From Candidatus Hydrogenedentota bacterium (GTDB lineage Bacteria > Hydrogenedentota > Hydrogenedentia > Hydrogenedentales > JAGMZX01), in the NCBI GenBank assembly GCA_029556545.1, contig JAKQEQ010000193.1, positions 15,262 to 79,261 on the forward strand: a stretch of 64,000 nucleotides of DNA, in the 5' to 3' direction. The number at the start of each line of letters is the position of its first letter. The first letter of the stretch is position 1. Positions 601 to 33,585 of this stretch are shown in pieces. The notes under the pieces are model-generated. The model had not been told where the DNA came from. It did no database searches and worked only from the letters and a program-made list of their open reading frames with translations. The position numbers and the translations under genes are program-made.

Positions 601-3569
601 TGAGCGCACGCAAATGGTTCGAGTCTGTCTTATTCGTGACGGGCCTGTTGTTACTTACGTTTGGAGGAACGGCCATGGCCTCCGAGATTTCCGAGAACGT
701 CTACACCGGCGAACTGGTGCGTTTCCCGGGGCCGTGGGCCTTCCACATTCCGCGGGCGCACATCATCCTCGTGAGCGATCAACAACTCATCGACCTTACG
801 GACCCGGACCGGGAAGTCGACATCGGCATGACGGGCACGCCGCGGGTGACGACGCTGAGGAAACTCTGCGAGCAGGCGCGCGCGGGCGGACAACGGACGC
901 TCATCTTCGCCTTCGACCACTTCTTCAGCCAGTACCGAAAAGGCCAGGAAGGCAAGCCGCGCGAGTTGCTGCCGGACACGGACGCCTACATCGGGCATAT
1001 CGCCAAAATCAGCAAGGTAGCGCAGGAGTACGGCATCGGCCTCGAATTGAGTCTGCTCAGCCCGCTCGAAATCGGCAAGGGCTATCACGAGCGCACGGGC
1101 GAGTCCGGCGTGTGGATGCACTACCGCGAAGGCCTGCGCGACCCGCGCACGGGCGCGTTCAGCGTGCAGTTCTGGCGGCAGACCAAGTGGTGCAACAACA
1201 AGGGCCCGATCACCGTCGAAGACGCGGGGGTACGGGCGTTCGCGTTCCGCGAGCGTGTCATCGACCGCACGCCCTACCGCGTCGTGCGGCCCGAGGATAT
1301 CGTCGAAATCACGGACGGCTTCACGGCGGAGGTGTGGGAGGGGACCGCGCGGCGCGCCGGGGACTATGAGGCGGTGCGCGTGTGCGTGCGGGGCGAGGGC
1401 GGCCCGCGCGGCTTTGACCGCGTGCTCGTGGTGCAGCAATACCGCACGCCCGAGATGGACTACTTCAGCGATTCGGCGTTGCCGTTCTTGCGGGACCTGG
1501 CGGACCGGTACGCGGACGCCGGCATCCTGCTGAACGGGCTGTATTCGGACGAGATGCACATCCAGCAGGACTGGCGGTATTTCAGCCACCACGACGCCGG
1601 CCAGTTCGCGCTCCGGTACGTGAGTCCCGGCCTCGCGAAACGCTTCGCCGATCACTACGGCGATCAATATCGCGACTTCGCGAAGTACATGGTCTATTTC
1701 GCTTATGCACAGGAGGACTTCACAAACGACCTCCGCGCGCGGGACGCCGCGATGCACGTGTTTGGCGATACGCCCGAGGCGGTGCGCGAGACCGCGTTAT
1801 TCCGGGCCCGGTACTACAAGTTGCTGCAGGACGGCGTGGTGGACCTCTTCGCCGAAGCGAAGCGCTACGCGGAGTCGCGCATGGGCCACCGGCTCGAGGC
1901 GCGCGCGCATCCGACCTGGGCCGAAAGCCCGACCATTGACGCCTGGGACACGGGCCGCCAGCAGCGCGCGCGCTTCCAGTACGAGTACACGCCGAATTTC
2001 ACGTGGTCGAACACGGTGCACCAGGCGGCGTCGGCGTGCCACGATTTCTTCAAGTGGAACGACTTCCTGACGGGCAACGGAAACGATCACGCGGAAGGCG
2101 GCTGGATCGACCGGAATTACTACGCGCCCGCGTTGGCGTGCTCGACGGGCATCCTCAACGACGTGCCGTATTCCTATGCCGCGCACTGGGGCGCGCCCGG
2201 CGAAGTGAGCCGGCGGCGTTCGGCCCTCGAAGCCGCCTACGGCGCGGCGGGCCATCCCGCGCACGGCATGGTCCAGAACCTCGAACACCGCGACGTGGAC
2301 GTGCTGATGCTGTATCCGCTCGACCTCGTGGCGGTCGAGGAACGGTTCGGCAGTTGGACCACCCAATACGGCTACGCGAACATGGTCCCGCAGGCGCAGA
2401 TTCTCGAACGCGGCGTCGTCAAGGACGGCGCCATCGAGATGGCGGGCCGTCGCTTCACGACCCTCGCGGCGACTTTCGAGCCGTTCCCGCGCCGGGCGCT
2501 GCTCGACATGATGCGCGCGCTCGCCGAGAGCGGCGGGCGGGTCGTCTGGTCGGGACCGCCCCCGTTGATCACCGCCGAGGGCGCGCCCGCGCTCGAAACG
2601 TGGCAAGCCCTGTTCGGTGTCGCCTACGTGCCGACCGTCGAGGACGGCCTGATCGCGCCAGGGCAGGAGGTGCGCTTCGAGGGCGCGCTGGCCCCCGTGC
2701 CGCCCCAGACGATCCTCACGCATTTCCTCGTGGACCGCGTGTATCCGGTGACGCCGGGCGAGGACGCGGCAACCGTGGCGCAGGTCGGCGACCACGTGGC
2801 GGGCACGGACAAGACGTTCCCCGGCGGCGGGCGCAGCGTATTCCTCGGGTTCCGCCCGCGCGACGACCAGGCGCGGAGCCTCGGCTATGAGACGCGCACG
2901 TGGTTCGAGACGCTCGACGCGCTGGGCGCGTACCCGCCGACGGGCGCGTTTCCGGACGCCAACGACAACACGGAGTACCTGTCGCGCACGACCGACTGGC
3001 TTTGCTGCCGGTTCCCGAACGGCGCGGTCTCGATCGCGCCGCACCTGCGCGACGTGCTCGAAGGCTGGCCGGGCGGCTTCGTGCGGAACCCGGAAGAGGA
3101 CGCCGAAATCATCAAGCACTTGGTCCTGCCGTCCGAGCGCATCGAACTCGCCGACTTCCAGGTCAACGGCCACCGCGTGACGTATTCAGGCGGCCGTGTC
3201 GTCACTTTCCGCGTGGACGAGCAAGGAAATCTGATCGCGTTCGCCGGGCATGACGCGAAAGAGATCGCCATCGACGGCCGTAACACCGCGTTCGCCGACG
3301 CCCCCATGCCGCTCGTCGCCTGGGCACCGGTCCAGCCCGAGCGGCGCGTCAAAGGCGGGGCGGTATTGTTGCTCATGGTGCATGGCGCGGGCGCGGTGCG
3401 TATCCCGGCCCACGGGCTGCCCGAAGAGATGCATTTCGTCGCCCAGGGGCCGACGCCGGGAAGCCGGGGCGCGGCCATATCCAGTCGCCGCGACGGCGAC
3501 GCCTTCGTGCTCACCATTGAGGCGGGTGCCTCGGGCGCGTGGCTCTACGGCATGCCGGGGCCTGCATAA
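601..3569 (+). CDS. large hypothetical signal-anchored protein (about 989 aa), function unknown
   Basis: Track ORF 351..3569. I chose the internal ATG at 601 (MSARKWFESVLFVTGLLLLTFGGTAMA) because it gives an N-terminal signal anchor. The frame has coding-like composition and no recognisable catalytic motif. Confidence 0.65.
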
Positions 3570-3896
3570 AGGCACAGACAACGCAGTCAAGACTTGGGAC
3601 CGTCCACCGCGCGCGGAGAGGCCGACGCGCATTGCGCGGGTTCGGTTTGCCGGTGGGCGTCGTGGTGGCGACCCTTGGAGACTTGGATCGCTACGTCAAT
3701 TCACCAGCGTTGGTCTATCGAGACGCGCTAAGAGATGGAAGAGAGTTGTATGCCGCATGACGGGGAACGAGCGGATGCGCCTGCGAGATGGTTGGCGAAC
3801 GCCGTCGCCGACTTGGTCGAAGCCACGTTGACCAAATCGGGCTCATACCGCGGCGTCGCACTCCAGGAAGCGCATATGCGCTATTACCGCTCCTTC

Positions 3897-4202
3897 TTAC
3901 CGGTATGCGTCGCGGCGATCATCCAGCGTCAATAGAAAGACTATGCGCTTTGTGCGGTCCACTGTGAAGAATATCCGAAAGTCGCCAATGCGATATCGCC
4001 ATGTATCGGGCGCGTAACCCTTAAGCTTCTTGATATTGGGACCAAGGAACGGATTCTCGCGCAATTGCGGATAGACATACCGTCGCAGCTTACGTTGCAG
4101 GAACTCGGAGGCGGCTTTAGAAAGTCTTTCGAGGCGTCGCCGGAATTCGTCCGTCTCGAAGATTCTGAATTCAAACGAAGCGCCCCTGTCCCGTTTCGGC
4201 AT
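3897..4202 (-). CDS. RelE/ParE-family type II toxin
   Basis: 101 aa with the C-terminal motif WRYRIGDFRIFFTVDRTKRIVFLLTLDDRRDAY, typical of RelE/ParE (RIGDYRIIY-type). It overlaps the upstream antitoxin gene by 32 nt. Confidence 0.8.
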   Translation of the reverse strand: MPKRDRGASFEFRIFETDEFRRRLERLSKAASEFLQRKLRRYVYPQLRENPFLGPNIKKLKGYAPDTWRYRIGDFRIFFTVDRTKRIVFLLTLDDRRDAYR

Positions 4203-18553: not shown

Positions 18554-20080
18554 CGCATCCGACCGGTCGCCGCGCGAGTCCTCATCGAGAAACGACGTGT
18601 CCGCCGGCGGTTCGCCACCGCGACGACCGAATCGCGCGAACACGAGCCCGAATGCGCCGACGATGAAGAGCGCCATGCCGAGCAGTTTCGCTGGGCTGCC
18701 CAACGTGCGTTCCGCGCGCAACACGACGGCATCGGCGGCGGCGAGGTCCGGCCGAATCGCAAATATCCAGTCGCCCTGGCGACGCCGCTCGCCGGGGCCG
18801 ATCGTGAACGTCTTCTCGTCTCCGCCGTCAATCGGGACCGCGCGCAAGGTGCACCGCACCTCGGGCGGCGTCGGCTCGCGGCGGTACGCCAGCATGACAT
18901 CGCCGTGCCGCATGTTTTCGCCTTGTCGAAGCGCGAGCGTCTCGCCCGCACTTTCGAGCAGGGCCTCGAAGACCGGTTGCTCCGTCTCCGGGACAGGCAG
19001 CGCCGCGCCCATGAGTTGGTCCAACCGGATTTCGTAAGGGAATTCGTCCGGACGCCACGCCTCCCGATCCTTGATCTCGCCGGTGAAGCGTTTCGCGGCG
19101 GCAGGCTGCGCCTTCGGCAATTCGTAAGCGGCGACAAGCGCGTGACCCTCGCGCCACGCATCCGCCGCGACCACGTGTTGCCACGCGGCGGGCCACTCGA
19201 AACGGAGGCGGCTTTCCGGGTCACGCGCGTTGGCGTCGAGCGTTTCCCTCTGTTGCTTGCCGTCCGCGGCGAATTCCACCGTAATACGCGGCGGTTCCGA
19301 CTTAAATTCAACGAGCGTCGCCTCCGTCCCGTCGCGCAGGACGTGGCCGGTCCCCGGAACAAACGAAGTCGACCAGTGCACGATGGTTGTGGCCGGTCGC
19401 CCGACCGCGCCGTTATCCACCACGCCCCAACGTCCCTCGAACAGGGATTCCGGCGATGCGGCGTGCGCCGCCCGCGCGGCCTCCTCGTCCGTGTGCCAGC
19501 GCAACCGAAGACCGATGCCCGGCGCCACGCGCAGCCAGTTCTCGGCATCCACGAAGAGATGCTCCGTCCAAGGCTCGCCTCGTCGCCGCAACGAGAACGC
19601 CGCCATCGGCTGTCCCTTCGGGTGTCGGACCAATCCACTCCAGCGCCGCAGCGTGACGCGGTACGCCTGGTCGTCAAAGGTGATCGTGGCGCCGTCATGG
19701 AGCGGGATTTCGCGCCGGTCCTCCGCCGCCCGCACGCGCAACACGTCGCGCGGCGGATACTCCCGCAGCACGTCCGCCTCTTCGAGGCGCAGACGGAACG
19801 GAAGGGTCATCGCGTCGTAGGCAAGGTCCGGGTCGAGCAGTCGTCGCGCGATGGCCGGGTTGTCGAACGCGATCACGTCGAGGGGCGCGCGCCGCTGCAT
19901 GCCGACAAAGACCTGCCCGGCCCGACTAGGGCGCACCACGCTCTTCTCGGTGCGGCCCAAGGCCAGCGGCAGTTCGCCGGAGAAGGCGGCCAACCGCTGG
20001 TAGACCAGGCCGCCCAAAGCGAAGACCGCGCCAAGATAAAAGAGCGCGAAAAACAGTCGCGGCGACGATGAGCGTTGCAT
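18548..20080 (-). CDS. hypothetical membrane protein with N- and C-terminal TM anchors and a large extracytoplasmic domain
   Basis: Internal ATG at 20080 (MQRSSSPRLFFALFYLGAVFALGGLVY) gives an N-terminal TM helix. There is a C-terminal TM LLGMALFIVGAFGLVFARF. The upstream 232 codons of track ORF 18548..20776 are rejected as an arginine-rich GC artefact. Confidence 0.55.
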   Translation of the reverse strand: MQRSSSPRLFFALFYLGAVFALGGLVYQRLAAFSGELPLALGRTEKSVVRPSRAGQVFVGMQRRAPLDVIAFDNPAIARRLLDPDLAYDAMTLPFRLRLEEADVLREYPPRDVLRVRAAEDRREIPLHDGATITFDDQAYRVTLRRWSGLVRHPKGQPMAAFSLRRRGEPWTEHLFVDAENWLRVAPGIGLRLRWHTDEEAARAAHAASPESLFEGRWGVVDNGAVGRPATTIVHWSTSFVPGTGHVLRDGTEATLVEFKSEPPRITVEFAADGKQQRETLDANARDPESRLRFEWPAAWQHVVAADAWREGHALVAAYELPKAQPAAAKRFTGEIKDREAWRPDEFPYEIRLDQLMGAALPVPETEQPVFEALLESAGETLALRQGENMRHGDVMLAYRREPTPPEVRCTLRAVPIDGGDEKTFTIGPGERRRQGDWIFAIRPDLAAADAVVLRAERTLGSPAKLLGMALFIVGAFGLVFARFGRRGGEPPADTSFLDEDSRGDRSDAS

Positions 20081-26675: not shown

Positions 26676-26741
26676 TAAGGGTTGGGGGCGGGCCGAAACC
26701 TTCGCCACGCGGCGCAGGCGCCTCCACCGCGTGTCGCCCCG

Positions 26742-26771
26742 CTGGCGCGGTCAAGAGACCGGCCACAATGG
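26742..26771. repeat. left copy (inverted orientation) of the roughly 30-bp repeat ATTGTGGCCGGTCTCYTGACCGCGCCASCG
   Basis: Plus strand gctggcgcggtcaagagaccggccacaatgg. Its reverse complement matches 27200-27232 with 2 mismatches over about 30 bp. Confidence 0.6.
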
Positions 26772-26880: not shown

Positions 26881-27147
26881 ATGAGTCAGACCGTCGCAAC
26901 GACAAAGATGAGTTCCAGGGGACAGGTGGTCATCCCGGAGACTATTCGCGACCGCCTGCGGCTTGGTCCCGGCGTGCAATTCGCGGTGTTCGCACAGGAG
27001 GACGTAGTCATGCTGAAGGTAATCAATCCGCCATCGGCGGACGAATTCGCGCGCCTGAAACGTGAGCTTCAACGGCAGGCGCGCCAAGGCGGCCGCAAAC
27101 GGTCAGACATCCCCAAGACCATTTCCAAAGTGCGTGGCCGCCGGTGA
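26881..27147 (+). CDS. AbrB/MazE/SpoVT-fold antitoxin (VapB-like)
   Basis: 88 aa from ATG 26881 (RBS ggag). SSRGQVVIPETIRDRLRLGPGVQFAV is the swapped-hairpin AbrB-fold motif. The stop overlaps the GTG of a PIN-domain ORF (GTGA). Confidence 0.7.
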   Translation: MSQTVATTKMSSRGQVVIPETIRDRLRLGPGVQFAVFAQEDVVMLKVINPPSADEFARLKRELQRQARQGGRKRSDIPKTISKVRGRR

Positions 27148-27221
27148 GACTCGTAGTCGATACGAACGTGCTGATCTCGGGTGCATTCTACCCGGGACCA
27201 TTGTTGTGGCCGGTCTCCTGA
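27144..27221 (+). pseudogene. truncated PIN-domain (VapC) toxin gene; only 25 codons remain
   Basis: GTG 27144 overlaps the antitoxin stop. VRLVVDTNVLISGAFYPGPLLWPVS* has the canonical PIN start (VVDTNVLIS). The frame ends inside the right copy of the 30-bp repeat. Confidence 0.5.
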
Positions 27222-27232
27222 CCGCGCCACCG
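27200..27232. repeat. right copy of the roughly 30-bp repeat; together with 26742-26771 it forms an inverted pair bracketing the abrB-vapC remnant
   Basis: ttgttgtggccggtctcctgaccgcgccaccg. It supplies the stop codon of the truncated vapC. Confidence 0.6.
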
Positions 27233-27356
27233 CCGCGACCGAAGGTCTCCAAGACCCTTACGACAGAACCCCATGAAGTCCCGCAATAACCCTGTGGTCT
27301 CTGTAATCCGTAATCCGCAATCCGCATTCCATACGCTGCAAGATAACGCCAAGCGC

Positions 27357-28133
27357 CTACCCAAGGTGCCCGACGGCGTTCCGGAAGACTTGCAGCCCCG
27401 CGCCTTCCTCGGGGAATTCTTCGCGGGTCCAGCGGGGATGTTGCGTGCGCGCGACGAACGCCTCGGGGTGCGGCATAAGCCCGAGCACGCGCCCCGACGG
27501 ATCGCAGATGCCCGCGATATCATCCACCGCGCCGTTCGGATTCGCCGGGTACGCGCCGCGGGCGGGCGCGCCGTCGGGTCCCGCGTAGCGGAACACGACC
27601 TGGCCGTTGGCGCGGAGTCTTTCGAGTACGGCGTCGTCGCGGGGGATGAACTTGCCCTCGCCGTGGCGAATCGGCAGTTCGAGGCCGGTGATGCCCTGGC
27701 TCCAGACGCAGCGGGTGCCCGGGTCCGCCGTGAGGCGCACCCAGCGGTCCTCGAACCGCCCCGAGTCGTTGTGCGTGACCGTGACCTCCTGTCGGAACGC
27801 GCCGTTGAACAGCGGCAGGATGCCCATCTTCACCATGACCTGGAACCCGTTGCAGATGCCGATGGCGAGCTTGCCCGCCGCGAGGAACTCCGCGATCGGC
27901 TCGCCCAGCTTGAAGCGGAGGCGGTTCGCGAGAATCTTTCCCGAGGCGACGTCGTCGCCGAAGGAGAACCCGCCGGGGACCGCGAGGATATGGAATTCGT
28001 GCAGCCGCGCCGGGTCCGCCACAAGATCATTCAGGTGGACAAACGCCGTCTCCGCGCCCGCAAGATGGAAAGCGTGTGCGGTCTCGTGCTCGCAGTTAAT
28101 CCCGAAACCGGTCACTATCAGTGCGCGTACCAC
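27357..28133 (-). CDS. purQ: phosphoribosylformylglycinamidine synthase glutaminase subunit PurQ
   Basis: ALIVTGFGINCEHETAHAF..., catalytic GICNGFQVMVKMG and PHPE motifs. I chose GTG 28133; the alternative ATG 28250 adds 39 non-conserved residues. Confidence 0.8.
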   Translation of the reverse strand: MVRALIVTGFGINCEHETAHAFHLAGAETAFVHLNDLVADPARLHEFHILAVPGGFSFGDDVASGKILANRLRFKLGEPIAEFLAAGKLAIGICNGFQVMVKMGILPLFNGAFRQEVTVTHNDSGRFEDRWVRLTADPGTRCVWSQGITGLELPIRHGEGKFIPRDDAVLERLRANGQVVFRYAGPDGAPARGAYPANPNGAVDDIAGICDPSGRVLGLMPHPEAFVARTQHPRWTREEFPEEGAGLQVFRNAVGHLG

Positions 28134-28283
28134 CGAAGGAGGGCCTTTCCCCACTGTGGACTGCGGCAGCTTGCTGCCGCTCTTCCTTCCGGGCGGCTTG
28201 CCGCCCGAGACAGGCTTCGAGATGAACTGAGCGCAAGCAAGCTTGCGCACTCCACAGGCAACCGTAATCCAAATACCATGAGC

Positions 28284-28496
28284 TTAGGCATTTACTACAG
28301 CCTCAAACGTGGTCATCATGGCCGTGGAGGCCGCCGGCATGGGAAATTCCATGAGGTAGGCTTCAGTCGCTTCCTTTAGGTTGGCGATGGCCTCCTCGAC
28401 CGTATAACCTTGGCTAACCGTGCCCACCTCCGGGCAATCGGCGACGTAGAGATCATCTTCCTTGTGTAATACGGCTGTGAATGTCTTGTGCGTCAT
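28284..28496 (-). CDS. HicB-like (UPF0150) antitoxin-family protein, orphan, located between purSL and purQ
   Basis: 70 aa. MTHKTFTAVLHKEDDLYVADCPEVGTVSQGYTVEEAIANLKEATEAYL matches the small HicB/UPF0150 fold signature (YVAxxPElxgc...G.T.EEAl.NlkEAiELyl). No hicA-like ORF is nearby. Confidence 0.65.
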   Translation of the reverse strand: MTHKTFTAVLHKEDDLYVADCPEVGTVSQGYTVEEAIANLKEATEAYLMEFPMPAASTAMMTTFEAVVNA

Positions 28497-28602
28497 GCCG
28501 CAGCCTCCATCTCGGCGCTGCCTCGGAGATCAGTCACCGTATCGTTCCTCTGTCGACACTTTCATTATCCATGATGCCCAGACTTGCTGTCCAGCGATGT
28601 TC

Positions 28603-31563
28603 TTACCACCGCAGCGGCCGCCGCCACGCTTCCTTTAACTCCGCGAGCGACGCCTTGACCGCCGCGCCGCCAGCGCACGCCGCCTCGAACACCGGCTCCG
28701 GCGTCACGACGCCCAGGCGCGTCACGGGGCAGCCCGCCAGCGCCGCCTCGAAGTGATCGGCCTTCTCCGGCGACACGCTGGCCACGAACCGGCTCTGCGA
28801 TTCGCTGAACAGCGCCACGACGTTGCTTTCGAGGCCCATCGCCGCAATATCGAGGCGCATGCCGTACCCGCCCGCGAACGCGGACTCCGCCAGCGCCACC
28901 GCCAGCCCGCCGTCGCTGCAATCGTGACACGACGCGACCAGACCCGCGCCGAAGGCCGCCGACAGCTTCTCATAGAGCGCCCGCGCCCGCGCCGGGTCCA
29001 CTTTCGGCACATTCGCGCCCAGTTGGCCGCGCAGGGCGAGGTACTCGCTCCCGCCCAGTTCATTTTTCGTCTCGCCGAGGACGTACACGACGTCGCCGGG
29101 CCGCTTCACGTCCATCGAGACGACCCTGTCCGTGTCCTCGATGACAGCCGCGGCGGTGAACAGCACGGTCGGCGGAATCGAAATCTTCGTGTCGCCGATC
29201 TTGTAGTCGTTCTTCATGCTGTCCTTGCCGCTGATGAGCGGGACATCGTAGGCGGTGCACACGTCGTACAGCGCCTCGCACGCGCGCACGAGTTGCGCGA
29301 GCTTGTAGCGTCCGTCCGGCGTCTTCTCGCTCGCGACCGGGTCCGGCCAGCAGAAGTTGTCGAGCCCCGCGATGAGCCCGAGCCTTGCGCCGACGGCGAC
29401 CAGGTTGCGCACGGCCTCGTCGATGACGCATGCCATCATGTGATAGGTATCTAGGTCACTATATTTCGGGCAGATGCCGCACGCCACCGCGATCCCGCGT
29501 TTCGACCCGAGCACGGGCCGGATCACCCCCGCGTCGCCGGGGCCGTCGTGCGCGACGCCCTGGAACTGCTTGAGCACGCTCTGGCCCTGGACCTCGTGGT
29601 CGTACATGCGCACGAACGTTTCCTTGCTGCACACGTTCAGCGCGCCGAGCACGGCCTTCAGCTCCGCCGTCAGGTCCGCATCCTCGACGATGATTTCCGG
29701 TTCGAGCGCGGGCGGCGTCCATTCCGCTTCGAGGCGCATCCTCGGCACGCCGTCATGCAGGAACTCCATATCGAGCGCGCCGATGAGCCTGCCGTCGTAA
29801 TAGCACTCGAGGCGTCCCGAGTCCGTGAACTCGCCCAGCACCGTCGCCTCGACCTCGCGCCGCCGCGCCAGTTCGAGGAAGGCGTCGATCTGGTCCGGCG
29901 GCACGGCCAGCGTCATGCGCTCCTGCGCCTCGGACAGGAAAATCTCCCACGGCGCGAGCCCGGCGTACTTCAGCGGCGCCCGCTCAAGATGGACCCGCGC
30001 CCCGCCGCACCCGCGCGCCATTTCGCCCACGCTCGACGACAGCCCGCCCGCCCCGTTGTCCGTGATGTTGTGGTACAGGCCGAGATCGCGCGCTTCGAGC
30101 AACAGGTCGGCCATCTTTTTCTGCGTGATCGGGTCGCCTATCTGCACCGCCGTCGCCGGCGAACCCGCGTGCAACTCCTCCGAGGAAAAGGTCGCGCCGT
30201 GGATGCCGTCCTTGCCGATGCGCCCGCCCGTCATCACGATCAGATCGCCCGGCTGCGCCTTCTTGACGTGGCTGGGCCGCCCGGCAACCGTCCGCGGGAT
30301 CAGCCCGCCCGTGCCGCAGAACACCAGCGGCTTGCCCAGGAACCGCTCGTGGAAGACGATGGCCCCGTTCACGTCCGGGATGCCGCTCTGGTTGCCGCCG
30401 TCCTTCACGCCCCGGTGGACCCCGCGAAGCACGCGCCGCGGATGCAGCAGCCGCTCCGGTATCGCGCCCTCATGGAACGGCGACGCGAAGCAGAACACGT
30501 CCGTGTTGAAAATGCAGCGGCAGCCCAGCCCCGCGCCCAGCACGTCGCGGTTCACGCCCACGATGCCGGTCATCGCCCCGCCATAAGGATCGAGGGCGGA
30601 TGGACTGTTGTGCGTCTCCGCCTTGAGCGCGAAATTGTGGTCTTCGTCGAAGCGGACCGTGCCCGCGTTGTCGTCGAAGACGCTCACGAGCCAATCGACC
30701 TTTTTCGCCACGGCGTCCGTCGTGGCCTTGACATAGGTCTTGAACAAACCGTCTATTGTTCGTTTTTGTTTGTTTTCGTCCGTATAGCGGATGGTTGCGT
30801 TGAAAATCTTGTGTTTGCAGTGCTCCGACCACGTCTGCGCGAGCACTTCGAGTTCCAGATCCGTCGGCCGCGGTGGCAGGCCCAGCGTCGCCCGCGACGC
30901 CCGTACCGCCGGGTCGCGGTAGTGCGCCTGGATCGCCTGAATCTCGTGCAGTTCGAGGGCAAGCACCATGTCGCGGCTGAGTCGCCGCAACGCCTCGTCC
31001 GGCACTTCCAGGTCGATCTCGCGGACCGCCGCGTCGCTTGTCGTGGTGACGATGGGCAGCGCGAGGAGGGGCTTGCCATCCAGCGCGCGCATTTCGGCGG
31101 CGGACTTCACGACCCACTGCTCGATCAGTTCATTGGCGAGCAGGTCGCGGGCGATCCGCGCGCACGTTGCGGCGTCCACGCCGCCCCGAACCACGTACAG
31201 CGTCGACTTGAACACGGCTTCGCCGGCGGCCAATGGCCGCCCGAGCACGTCCGCGATGCCCTCCGCGGAACTCTTGCCGATATTGTCCGTGACGCCGGGC
31301 AGAAAGCCCACTTCGATGACGTAGTCGTAGTCTCGGGCGAGCGATCGGTCAATGGCCGATTCCTGGATAATCGGGTCGGTGAACAACTCGCGGCGGACGG
31401 TCTCCAGTTCGTCCGGGGACACCGCCGCGTGGACGGTATACACGTCGATGACGCTGACGTCGTCCACGTGGATGCCGAGGTCTTCCGCGAGCCGGTCGCG
31501 GACGGACGCGCCCGCCGGGTCCGGGAGACCCGGCTTCATCGCCACTTCGATCCGGCTAGGCAT
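28603..31563 (-). CDS. purL: phosphoribosylformylglycinamidine synthase, PurS-PurL fusion (FGAM synthase II with N-terminal PurS domain)
   Basis: 986 aa. The N-terminal 80 aa IEVAMKPGLPDPAGASV is PurS-like. It is followed by PurL N-domain, linker and AIRS/AIRS_C duplications with GGRIGKDGIHGATFSS and DCSDGGLAVAL. Confidence 0.9.
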   Translation of the reverse strand: MPSRIEVAMKPGLPDPAGASVRDRLAEDLGIHVDDVSVIDVYTVHAAVSPDELETVRRELFTDPIIQESAIDRSLARDYDYVIEVGFLPGVTDNIGKSSAEGIADVLGRPLAAGEAVFKSTLYVVRGGVDAATCARIARDLLANELIEQWVVKSAAEMRALDGKPLLALPIVTTTSDAAVREIDLEVPDEALRRLSRDMVLALELHEIQAIQAHYRDPAVRASRATLGLPPRPTDLELEVLAQTWSEHCKHKIFNATIRYTDENKQKRTIDGLFKTYVKATTDAVAKKVDWLVSVFDDNAGTVRFDEDHNFALKAETHNSPSALDPYGGAMTGIVGVNRDVLGAGLGCRCIFNTDVFCFASPFHEGAIPERLLHPRRVLRGVHRGVKDGGNQSGIPDVNGAIVFHERFLGKPLVFCGTGGLIPRTVAGRPSHVKKAQPGDLIVMTGGRIGKDGIHGATFSSEELHAGSPATAVQIGDPITQKKMADLLLEARDLGLYHNITDNGAGGLSSSVGEMARGCGGARVHLERAPLKYAGLAPWEIFLSEAQERMTLAVPPDQIDAFLELARRREVEATVLGEFTDSGRLECYYDGRLIGALDMEFLHDGVPRMRLEAEWTPPALEPEIIVEDADLTAELKAVLGALNVCSKETFVRMYDHEVQGQSVLKQFQGVAHDGPGDAGVIRPVLGSKRGIAVACGICPKYSDLDTYHMMACVIDEAVRNLVAVGARLGLIAGLDNFCWPDPVASEKTPDGRYKLAQLVRACEALYDVCTAYDVPLISGKDSMKNDYKIGDTKISIPPTVLFTAAAVIEDTDRVVSMDVKRPGDVVYVLGETKNELGGSEYLALRGQLGANVPKVDPARARALYEKLSAAFGAGLVASCHDCSDGGLAVALAESAFAGGYGMRLDIAAMGLESNVVALFSESQSRFVASVSPEKADHFEAALAGCPVTRLGVVTPEPVFEAACAGGAAVKASLAELKEAWRRPLRW

Positions 31564-32617
31564 ATTGCAGCGTCCCGGTGTAGGTGACCTTCCGTTCGCC
31601 GGTCACGACCTTGCCGACCACCATCGCCTGCTGCCCGGCCATTTCGACGCTCTGCACCGCCTTCGCCGCCTGCTTCTCGGGGACGATGAAGAGGAATCCG
31701 ATGCCCATGTTGAACGTGCGCAGCATTTCGGCGTCGGCGACGCGCCCCGCCTCCTTCAGGAACGTGAACAGGCGCGGCACGGACCAGCTCGAAAGGTCGA
31801 TCTCGACCCCGAAACCGTCGGGCAGGGCGCGGGGCAGGTTGTCCGTGATGCCGCCGCCGGTCACGTGGGCCATGCCGCGGACTTCGACCAGCTTCATCAC
31901 GATCTGCATCAACTTGGCGTAGCTGATATGGGGCTCCATCAGCGCGGCGGCCACGGTCTTGCCGAGGCCGGGCACTTCATCCTCGATGCGCAGTTTCGCC
32001 ACGTCGAACACGATGCGCCGCGCCAGGCTGTATCCGTTCGTGTGCAGGCCCGACGACGGGAGCCCGACGACCACGTCGCCCGGCGCGATGCGCGACCCGT
32101 CCACGATGTTCTTGCGGTCCACCACGCCCACGATGGTCCCGGCCAGGTCGTACTCGTTCTCCGCGTACATGCCCGGCATCTCGGCCGTCTCGCCGCCGAT
32201 GAGGGCGCAGCCCGCGTAGCGGCAGCCCGCCGCGACACCGCGGATGACGTCGCCGATGATCTCGGGATCGACCTTGCCCGCGGCCAGATAATCGAGGAAG
32301 AACAGGGGCCGCGCGCCCTGCACCAGGATGTCGTTCACCGAGTGCGACACGAGATCCACGCCGACGGTGTCGTGCTTGTTCGTCATGAACGCGAGCTTCA
32401 GCTTCGTGCCGACGCCGTCCACGCTCGAAACCAGCACCGGCGCCTCCATGTCCTTGATGTCGAGCAGGTACATGGCGCCGAAACTGCCGATATCCTGAAG
32501 CACGTTGTCGTTGAACGTGCGCTTGATCGCTTCCTTCGCGCGGGCGAGCGCCGCGTTCGCCGCGTCGATATCGACGCCCGCGTCCTTGTAGCTCAAACCC
32601 GGTGTGTCGTGGTTCAT
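31556..32617 (-). CDS. purM: phosphoribosylformylglycinamidine cyclo-ligase (AIR synthase) PurM
   Basis: Internal ATG 32617 with RBS ggagga. MNHDTPGLSYKDAGVDID... is the classical PurM N-terminus. The stop overlaps the purL start by 8 nt. Confidence 0.9.
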   Translation of the reverse strand: MNHDTPGLSYKDAGVDIDAANAALARAKEAIKRTFNDNVLQDIGSFGAMYLLDIKDMEAPVLVSSVDGVGTKLKLAFMTNKHDTVGVDLVSHSVNDILVQGARPLFFLDYLAAGKVDPEIIGDVIRGVAAGCRYAGCALIGGETAEMPGMYAENEYDLAGTIVGVVDRKNIVDGSRIAPGDVVVGLPSSGLHTNGYSLARRIVFDVAKLRIEDEVPGLGKTVAAALMEPHISYAKLMQIVMKLVEVRGMAHVTGGGITDNLPRALPDGFGVEIDLSSWSVPRLFTFLKEAGRVADAEMLRTFNMGIGFLFIVPEKQAAKAVQSVEMAGQQAMVVGKVVTGERKVTYTGTLQYA

Positions 32618-32799
32618 CGTGGGGATTCCTCCGGAAGGCCATAAGGATAGCCGCCCCACCGGGTCAAAGCAAATGGCGCGACGCCCAGGCAACATGCGCC
32701 AATGTGGGGCGGACATACTTGCCTGCCGCTCATTCCTTCGCTTGCGGGCGCGCTAGGAACGTTCAGTCTTCACTGCTCGGCGCGGCTGCCCCGTTGGCG

Positions 32800-33585
32800 T
32801 CATTTCCGCTCAAGGCTGTGGCGGATGTAGCGTTCCAGCGCGGCCTCGGCGTCTAGCACGCGCTTAAGCAAGGGCTCGATGTGCCGCTCGAGGTAGCTGC
32901 GGGCGTTGCGTGCTTGCTCGGGTTTGGGTTCCGCGCCCGTCTCGTATTCCTGAATCCAGCCCTCGACCTGTCGCTTGGCCTCTTCCAGGTGCGACCGTTG
33001 TTTGGCCAACACGTCCGCGTCTCGCCCGCCGCCCCAGAAGGCGAACAACTTGGTGGCGAACTCGACGTGCGCGCGGATTACTTCCCAATCTCGCGGATCG
33101 TGATTTTGGAATAGGTCCTGAAATCCCGACTCCACCAATTGAAGACTGGGACGAAACAGTGGATGCCCGCGTTGTGACAGAATTTGCGCAAGCACGGCCC
33201 TGATCTCGACCGCTCGATCGTCGTTCGGATGTTCCTTCAGCCACTGCTGGCCGACCTGCAGTGCGCGCCACTCGCGGTACGTCAAGGCGTATAGCTCGAC
33301 TTGGCGCATCGCGGCCCAACGACGCAGCGGCTCGGGCGCCGTTGCATCATCCAGCAGCGCCTGGCACGCCGCCAGGGGTTCCGCCTCGACCCCGTTGCCC
33401 AAGGTGCGCTTTGCAGCCGGGATCAACTCATCCTGGGCCAGCGTTGTTGCCTCATACGGCAGCTCGGGGAAGGGATTGAAATCGGCCAAGCTCGCTCCGA
33501 AGGCGGCCACATTCGGAACGATGCTCAAGAAAAGGACCGACCACACACGAACAACAGTCGCCGCTGCTTTTCGTTTCCACCACAT
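32800..33585 (-). CDS. hypothetical secreted protein
   Basis: 261 aa. The N-terminal signal-like MWWKRKAAATVVRVWSVLFLSIVPNVAAFGA precedes a helical Glu/Arg-rich body. Confidence 0.55.
   Translation of the reverse strand: MWWKRKAAATVVRVWSVLFLSIVPNVAAFGASLADFNPFPELPYEATTLAQDELIPAAKRTLGNGVEAEPLAACQALLDDATAPEPLRRWAAMRQVELYALTYREWRALQVGQQWLKEHPNDDRAVEIRAVLAQILSQRGHPLFRPSLQLVESGFQDLFQNHDPRDWEVIRAHVEFATKLFAFWGGGRDADVLAKQRSHLEEAKRQVEGWIQEYETGAEPKPEQARNARSYLERHIEPLLKRVLDAEAALERYIRHSLERK

Follow-up and report, generated by a model that had tools for sequence, protein, structure and literature searches.

The locus analyzed here is very probably a decaying class 2 hicBA toxin-antitoxin (TA) module that has been reduced to a solitary hicB gene, lodged in the purine biosynthesis operon of a member of Candidatus Hydrogenedentota. 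The module would have been acquired horizontally as a compact cassette of two genes overlapping by 8 nt, for a HicB of 70 aa that lacks a DNA-binding domain and for the RNase toxin HicA of 75 aa, together with about 100 nt of upstream DNA bearing a promoter-like site. This cassette appears to have inserted into the very short spacer between purSL and purQ in the ancestor of one Hydrogenedentota subclade; later, in the lineage studied here, hicA codons ~10-75 would have been lost, with a 104-nt palindromic repeat element apparently now standing in their place. In a TA module, the toxin can be the first component to go, whereas the antitoxin cannot, and a solo antitoxin is thus the expected intermediate of such decay.

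The whole stretch of DNA that we analyzed, here termed the window, is 64 kb (64,000 nucleotides) long, and positions refer to it unless another locus is named. Its purine genes lie on the minus strand, where the operon block opens with purM (31556..32716), an AIR synthase gene identified from the ORF list and its Pfam AIRS and AIRS_C matches. It is followed by purSL (28603..31563, minus), whose 986-aa product is a PurL with an N-terminal PurS-like domain, matching the Pfam PurS, FGAR-AT_linker, AIRS and AIRS_C models and the NCBIfam PurL model (E=4e-155); the PurS-like domain occupies residues 4-69 and scores 27.6 bits in Pfam against a cut-off of 22.2. With this domain and the FGAR-AT linker fused to PurL, PurQ encoded separately, and the length of 986 aa kept in relatives, the architecture resembles a large PurL minus its glutaminase domain. 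The gene for the 258-aa glutaminase subunit of FGAM synthase, purQ (27357..28133, minus; Pfam GATase_5, E=8e-83; NCBIfam PurQ), has its longest ORF beginning at 28250, upstream of the GTG at 28133 that is marked as the start by alignment to relatives and by a 258-aa gene call in contigs L003 and L005 of the same species. Because purQ starts at this GTG, the spacer between hicB and purQ measures 150 nt (28134-28283). The preliminary description of this DNA had placed a 70-aa ORF at 28284..28496, on the strand of the pur genes, between purSL and purQ, 106 nt from purSL (28497-28602), with purM and purSL overlapping by 8 nt; the ORF coordinates and gene order bear out each of these points. The ORF, recognized as hicB from Pfam, homologues and fold, is intact, begins with MTHKTFTAVLHKEDDLYVADCPEVGTVSQGYTVEEAIANLKEATEAYL as quoted earlier, and encodes a short antitoxin now without its partner toxin. 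Direct reading of the sequence places a GGAGG ribosome-binding site (28504..28508, minus) 7 nt 5' of its ATG. The purQ ribosome-binding region, GGGGAAAGG (28144..28152, minus), is conserved in relatives, where the alignments show it directly after the hicA stop.

Just downstream of purQ, the window also carries a gene for an 87-aa AbrB/MazE-type antitoxin-like protein (26884-27147, plus strand; TIGR01439, E=3e-7), which has below-threshold Pfam matches to MazE and PrlF and no obvious adjoining toxin partner. A 36-nt inverted repeat with 89% complementarity flanks the gene at 26733-26768 and 27204-27239. A dispersed repeat, GCGCGGTCAGGAGACCGGCCACAA, translated as the "WRGQETGHN" motif of spurious ORFs, occurs at 19387-19410 (minus), 26745-26768 (plus) and 27204-27227 (minus) with 0-2 mismatches, none being expected by chance, and is probably a short repeat found genome-wide.

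The preliminary description had ascribed a clear HicB signature to the 70-aa ORF, a claim upheld by homologues, fold and linkage to HicA, although the signature is less strong by Pfam score, always below cut-off, than had been implied. In the comparison with HicB/UPF0150 profiles that it had proposed as a check, the ORF scored 18.9 bits against UPF0150 (PF21748; E=1.4e-3; cut-off 27.3) and 17.8 bits against HicB_lk_antitox (PF15919; E=3.9e-3; cut-off 27), matches that are real but lie below the curated thresholds; an NCBIfam scan of the ORF returned no match. Sequence comparisons with the PDB gave modest E-values: phmmer recovered the HicB structure 6g1n only at E=0.12, and a profile of 34 family sequences recovered TTHA1756 (2yzt) at E=5.5e-3 and 6g1n at E=0.025. 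Homologues are abundant, with more than 7,000 proteins of about 70 aa, and among the 120 listed, which span many phyla, nearly all are 68-74 aa long with identities of 71-86%. A record of the identical protein, from a MAG, bears the name "HicB family antitoxin [Candidatus Hydrogenedentes]", and some close homologues carry a precomputed PF15919 match and are named HicB by NCBI and JGI.

The AlphaFold2 model (mean pLDDT 70.7) displays a beta-beta-beta-alpha arrangement, with three strands (residues 9-13, 16-21, 26-30), a helix (33-50) and then a disordered tail. This agrees with the partial RNase H-like fold (beta-beta-beta-alpha-beta), except that the fourth strand is absent from the model owing to the low confidence of residues 57-70. 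In Foldseek searches, the best matches were 2yzt and 6g1n (probability 1.00 for both), then 3k6q and 4p7d, all of them HicB-type antitoxins, and 6g1n superposed on the model with an rmsd of 1.0 A over 45 columns. TTHA1756 of Thermus thermophilus, a 67-aa UPF0150/HicB-like protein, shares the size and single-domain build of the window HicB. In contrast, 6g1n, the HicB of Burkholderia pseudomallei, matched in its N-terminal domain, has a C-terminal ribbon-helix-helix DNA-binding domain that the window protein lacks; the window HicB is 23-31% identical to these two proteins. There is no Pfam match to a DNA-binding domain in the ORF, the model consisting of the core and the disordered tail alone, and at 70 aa, without an HTH, RHH or Phd/YefM domain, the protein falls in the 60-90 aa range of class 2. 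An adjacent HicA (PF07927) gene is missing in the window but present in L009, L010, L012, L173, L175 and L176, the related loci described below. Because both the orthologues and more distant homologues pair with HicA in this manner, the family assignment stands and the locus is to be viewed as a solo member of the family. It is the fold model and the gene linkage, not the Pfam scores, that settle the assignment: as judged from sequence and modeled structure, the ORF is a class 2 HicB antitoxin without a DNA-binding domain, and neutralization of HicA is its predicted activity.

The fate of the missing toxin becomes apparent from the relatives. The closest non-identical homologues of HicB (P0002, P0003 and P0004; 84-86% identity) are encoded in the metagenomic loci L009, L010/L011 and L012, which display the same purM-purSL-hicB-purQ gene order and whose PurQ and PurL proteins are 82-85% identical to those of the window. 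In L009, L010 and L012, the interval between hicB and purQ accommodates an intact 75-aa ORF, e.g., MPRLARVSGSEAIRVMERLGFRQVRQHGSH..., that matches PF07927 (HicA_toxin; E ~1e-17) and keeps the GSH motif. Its ATG overlaps the hicB stop (ATGCCTAG), giving an 8-nt overlap, and its stop lies about 18 nt before purQ. Since an intact module is present at this very junction in the relatives, the ancestral state there was a complete hicBA. The gene callers on record left the three hicA genes uncalled (L009 4206-4433, L010 943-1170 and L012 4206-4433), so that in the stored annotation each module seems to consist of a lone hicB; annotation gaps may account for part of the class 2 hicB genes that appear as "orphan" elsewhere. 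Between the purSL stop and the conserved promoter-like block, L009 is longer by about 80 bases (3815-3900) than the window, L010 and L012. The same organization extends to more distant HicB proteins with 76-77% identity from Desulfacinum, Dissulfurispira and an Ignavibacteriae MAG (loci L173, L175 and L176), which are encoded in hicB(70)-hicA(75) modules, again with an 8-nt overlap. HicA begins with MPKL in Desulfacinum and Dissulfurispira, and with MPRL or MPKL across the relatives and distant members as a whole. In the Ignavibacteriae MAG, a purE-type (AIRC) gene (2820-3213) is found about 0.9 kb downstream of the hicBA cassette (L176, 1501-1933), a second purine-gene neighborhood that is probably a coincidence.

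Alignment of the window with L009, L010 and L012 shows that the toxin gene has left a trace. A 5' remnant of hicA of about 27 nt, ATGCCTAAGCTC..., coding for MPKL, is found at 28265..28291 (minus), with its ATG overlapping the hicB stop as ATGCCTAR, just as in the intact modules; after the MPKL codons, about 15 more bases can be aligned, as ATGCCTAAGCTC...GGAT. The earlier observation that the gaps flanking hicB contain no hicA ORF is correct, and what it overlooked is this start with its first codons across the hicB stop. When three HicA proteins were compared by tblastn against the whole 64-kb window, nothing significant was recovered (best E=0.13). We rejected the 150-nt spacer as a slowly decayed hicA, as its global alignment scores did not stand out from dinucleotide shuffles (z=-0.05, 2.07 and -0.05), and accordingly treat its middle as hicA sequence that appears to have been replaced rather than decayed. 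The remnant ATG opens an ORF of 57 aa (28118-28291) that matches no Pfam or NCBIfam family, and by our own estimate chance alone would leave a frame of this length open about 1 time in 5 at the local GC content. The preliminary description had also offered the remnant of a hicAB insertion with a lost toxin as one explanation. The three loci with intact hicA and the ~27-nt remnant speak for that reading, as does the absence of any gene between purSL and purQ in about 100 more distant relatives; the gene order, however, is hicB-hicA, with the antitoxin first, and not hicAB.

The body of hicA is replaced at its position by an imperfect palindrome of 104 nt (28154..28257, unstranded), delineated by fold and arm alignment. 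Its 29-nt arms are 83% complementary and are separated by 46 nt containing a further hairpin, and its predicted RNA fold (z=-3.07) comprises nested GC-rich hairpins. A permissive Rfam scan (E up to 1) of 27000-33500 matched no RNA family in the two spacers or ahead of purM, and there is no second copy in the 64-kb window by searches allowing up to 3 mismatches or by blastn-short. A related, larger palindrome is present in a Hydrogenedens MAG whose PurQ is 68% identical (L039:5312-5476), in an intergenic position between convergent ORFs. For the left arm, 25 of 26 alignment columns agree (96%, with one gap; E=0.001 for 0.8 Mb searched), and a match is also seen for the right arm; this version has 64-nt arms, 80% complementary, and a DNA fold z of -7.59. 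Like REP/MITE-like repeats, the window element is an imperfect, intergenic palindrome with nested GC-rich hairpins, and its related copy is intergenic in the same phylum. It has been seen as two copies in all, one in the 64-kb window and one related in 0.8 Mb of other loci, and we provisionally regard it, on these two copies, as a member of such a family that replaced most of hicA. Half of the eight same-species metagenomic contigs (L001, L004, L006 and L008) end at window positions 28116-28164, no more than about 50 nt from where the palindrome terminates on its right-hand side and purQ starts, which suggests an assembly-breaking repeat or strain variation.

To place the insertion phylogenetically, we drew relatives from PurQ scans of GTDB species representatives and JGI metagenomes. 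About 135 related loci hold purL and purQ, and none outside the clade of the window contains hicB or hicA; purSL adjoins purQ, with neither gene present, in about 100 more distant relatives. This indicates that the hicBA insertion is specific to the clade of the window. In the relatives, the purSL-purQ spacer is mostly 5-80 nt, and in some cases just 5 nt. A metagenome PurQ scan for closer intermediates returned the same species or loci of no more than 75% identity alone. GC3 is lower in hicB (0.66) than in the pur genes (0.86-0.90), a difference that would fit a foreign gene which has incompletely adopted the composition of its host. Members of the hicB family were not found in phage collections, and in plasmid collections they were limited to two Thermus plasmids, with 57-58% identity to HicB.

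The same junction holds other cargo in other loci: a PD-(D/E)XK_3 gene in L045 and L049 (E=3e-36), a DUF1232 gene in L052 (E=6e-13), a radical SAM/SPASM gene in L061, an ORF of about 380 aa with no assigned function in L065 and L094, and small ORFs without a family in L013 and L015. The 58-aa junction ORF of L015 was considered as a HicA-like candidate and dropped, as neither Pfam nor NCBIfam supports it. The purSL-purQ junction looks like a repeated landing site in Hydrogenedentota. The presence of a TA gene in a purine operon had been called unusual, a view to be qualified, as the junction takes unrelated small inserts in several other Hydrogenedentota lineages and orphan antitoxins are common in general (PMC7192599).

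The purSL-hicB spacer contains a promoter-like element, TGGACA-N18-GATAAT (28564..28593, minus; 10 of 12 consensus matches), both hexamers of which are unchanged across L009, L010, L012 and the window; in other phyla, the region preceding hicB does not conserve them. This site could drive hicB and then purQ. No terminator-like site was found on the coding strand in either spacer around hicB. Given the intact ORF, the good ribosome-binding site and this lack of a terminator-like site, the antitoxin is probably still made, with its transcription probably coming from its own promoter, from read-through of the pur operon, or from both.

What the gene now does is best considered together with the constraint upon it. 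Against the three relatives, hicB displays dN of 0.077-0.088 with saturated dS, and hence dN/dS of at most 0.05. In a three-taxon split that we computed from the pairwise distances, the dN branch of the window hicB (0.035) is compared with 0.042-0.053 for hicB of the relatives and 0.062 for the window purQ. The window protein keeps all 29 family-invariant columns, its few private changes falling at variable positions. These figures argue against a long neutral decay of hicB. They have also to be weighed for the idea that selection maintains the solo HicB for anti-addiction or immunity, directed against HicA from paralogous loci or mobile elements, an idea that we consider unlikely. The ORF and its 29 invariant residues are intact, the window branch shows no excess of amino acid change, the 73-80% identity of the family across phyla makes cross-neutralization plausible, and such a role has been discussed for orphan antitoxins (PMC7192599). 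However, the toxin loss is undated and the low dN/dS may mostly reflect the time spent as an intact hicBA pair; there is no HicA within the 64-kb window; and the family is not on phages and is limited, among plasmids, to the two Thermus plasmids at 57-58% identity. Because the loss of hicA cannot be dated, selection on a solo gene and recent loss of the toxin are inseparable, and the nine same-species contigs, being 99.9-100% identical, carry no population signal on selection. A more elaborate version, by which purSL-purQ is a recurrent "safe harbour" in Hydrogenedentota, its small selfish or accessory cargo arriving repeatedly and riding on the transcription of an essential operon, and whose solo HicB is in addition selected as immunity, we hold to be doubtful; if true, it would mean that a solo HicB confers immunity against a promiscuous hicBA cassette, the proteins of which are 73-80% identical across phyla. 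For the decaying module that we favor, the likeliest present role of HicB is either none or the neutralization of same-family HicA from elsewhere in the genome or from incoming mobile elements.

Two further readings deny the antitoxin any such role. One holds that the segment persists for the sake of purQ expression, the insertion having brought in a promoter and set purQ apart from purSL, so that its deletion would damage an essential gene, while the HicB protein itself is irrelevant. The conservation of the promoter-like site in all four clade loci, the coding-strand spacers without a terminator-like site and the retained purQ ribosome-binding region are all compatible with this. Yet it predicts conservation of the DNA 5' of hicB rather than of HicB residues, which is at odds with the dN/dS of at most 0.05, and relatives without the insertion manage with a spacer of 5-60 nt, for which an extra promoter is in principle unneeded; we therefore judge it improbable. 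The other would make the 70-aa ORF a genuine part of the pur operon, as a domesticated regulator, which the preliminary description had entertained, or as a small PurS-like subunit. In many bacteria, a PurS of comparable size is encoded next to purQ and purL, and the ORF is both PurS-like in size and tightly embedded on the same strand. As a candidate PurS it had to be dropped, because it has no PF02700 match and PurL already carries a PurS-like domain; as a regulator it lacks a DNA-binding domain, the model offering beta-beta-beta-alpha and a disordered tail, and any tie to purine control. Moreover, it is absent from the ~100 relatives with the same operon, and its closest homologues pair with HicA in unrelated contexts. 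This last reading is thus already largely refuted, and we give it hardly any credence.

Comparison with described systems places the locus in a familiar setting. Class 2 hicBA modules are compact, usually overlapping hicB-hicA pairs whose HicB (60-90 aa) lacks a DNA-binding domain and whose HicA has 60-85 aa, and solitary hicB genes have been mentioned among them (Gerdes 2024, mBio, PMC10865869). The modules of L009, L010, L012, L173, L175 and L176 conform to this description, with hicB preceding and overlapping hicA and products of 70 and 75 aa, and the window HicB likewise consists of the partial RNase H-like core alone, with no HTH or RHH. The window differs from them in being devoid of hicA and in lying in a purine operon rather than in a defense island or next to a transposase. 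Orphan antitoxins were found to be common in a survey of Klebsiella pneumoniae, in which persistence as a relic, anti-addiction and a new regulatory role were discussed as their fates (PMC7192599). As in those cases, the antitoxin of the window is retained in its original pair context while the toxin side has been replaced; unlike in them, the paired ancestral state is visible in sister lineages at the same junction, and the toxin has given way to a palindromic repeat.

These observations have a direct bearing on annotation, in that the gene should be recorded as a solo class 2 HicB, and neither as a component of the purine pathway nor as a regulator. More generally, they show that a TA cassette can sit between the genes for PurL and PurQ, subunits of a single essential enzyme, with the operon left unbroken. 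The locus is not a new kind of system; the loss of the toxin here represents an ordinary stage of TA decay and leaves the current understanding of TA systems unchanged. Its value is as a clean natural example of that process, in which the sister lineages keep hicBA and the lineage of the window keeps the antitoxin alone.
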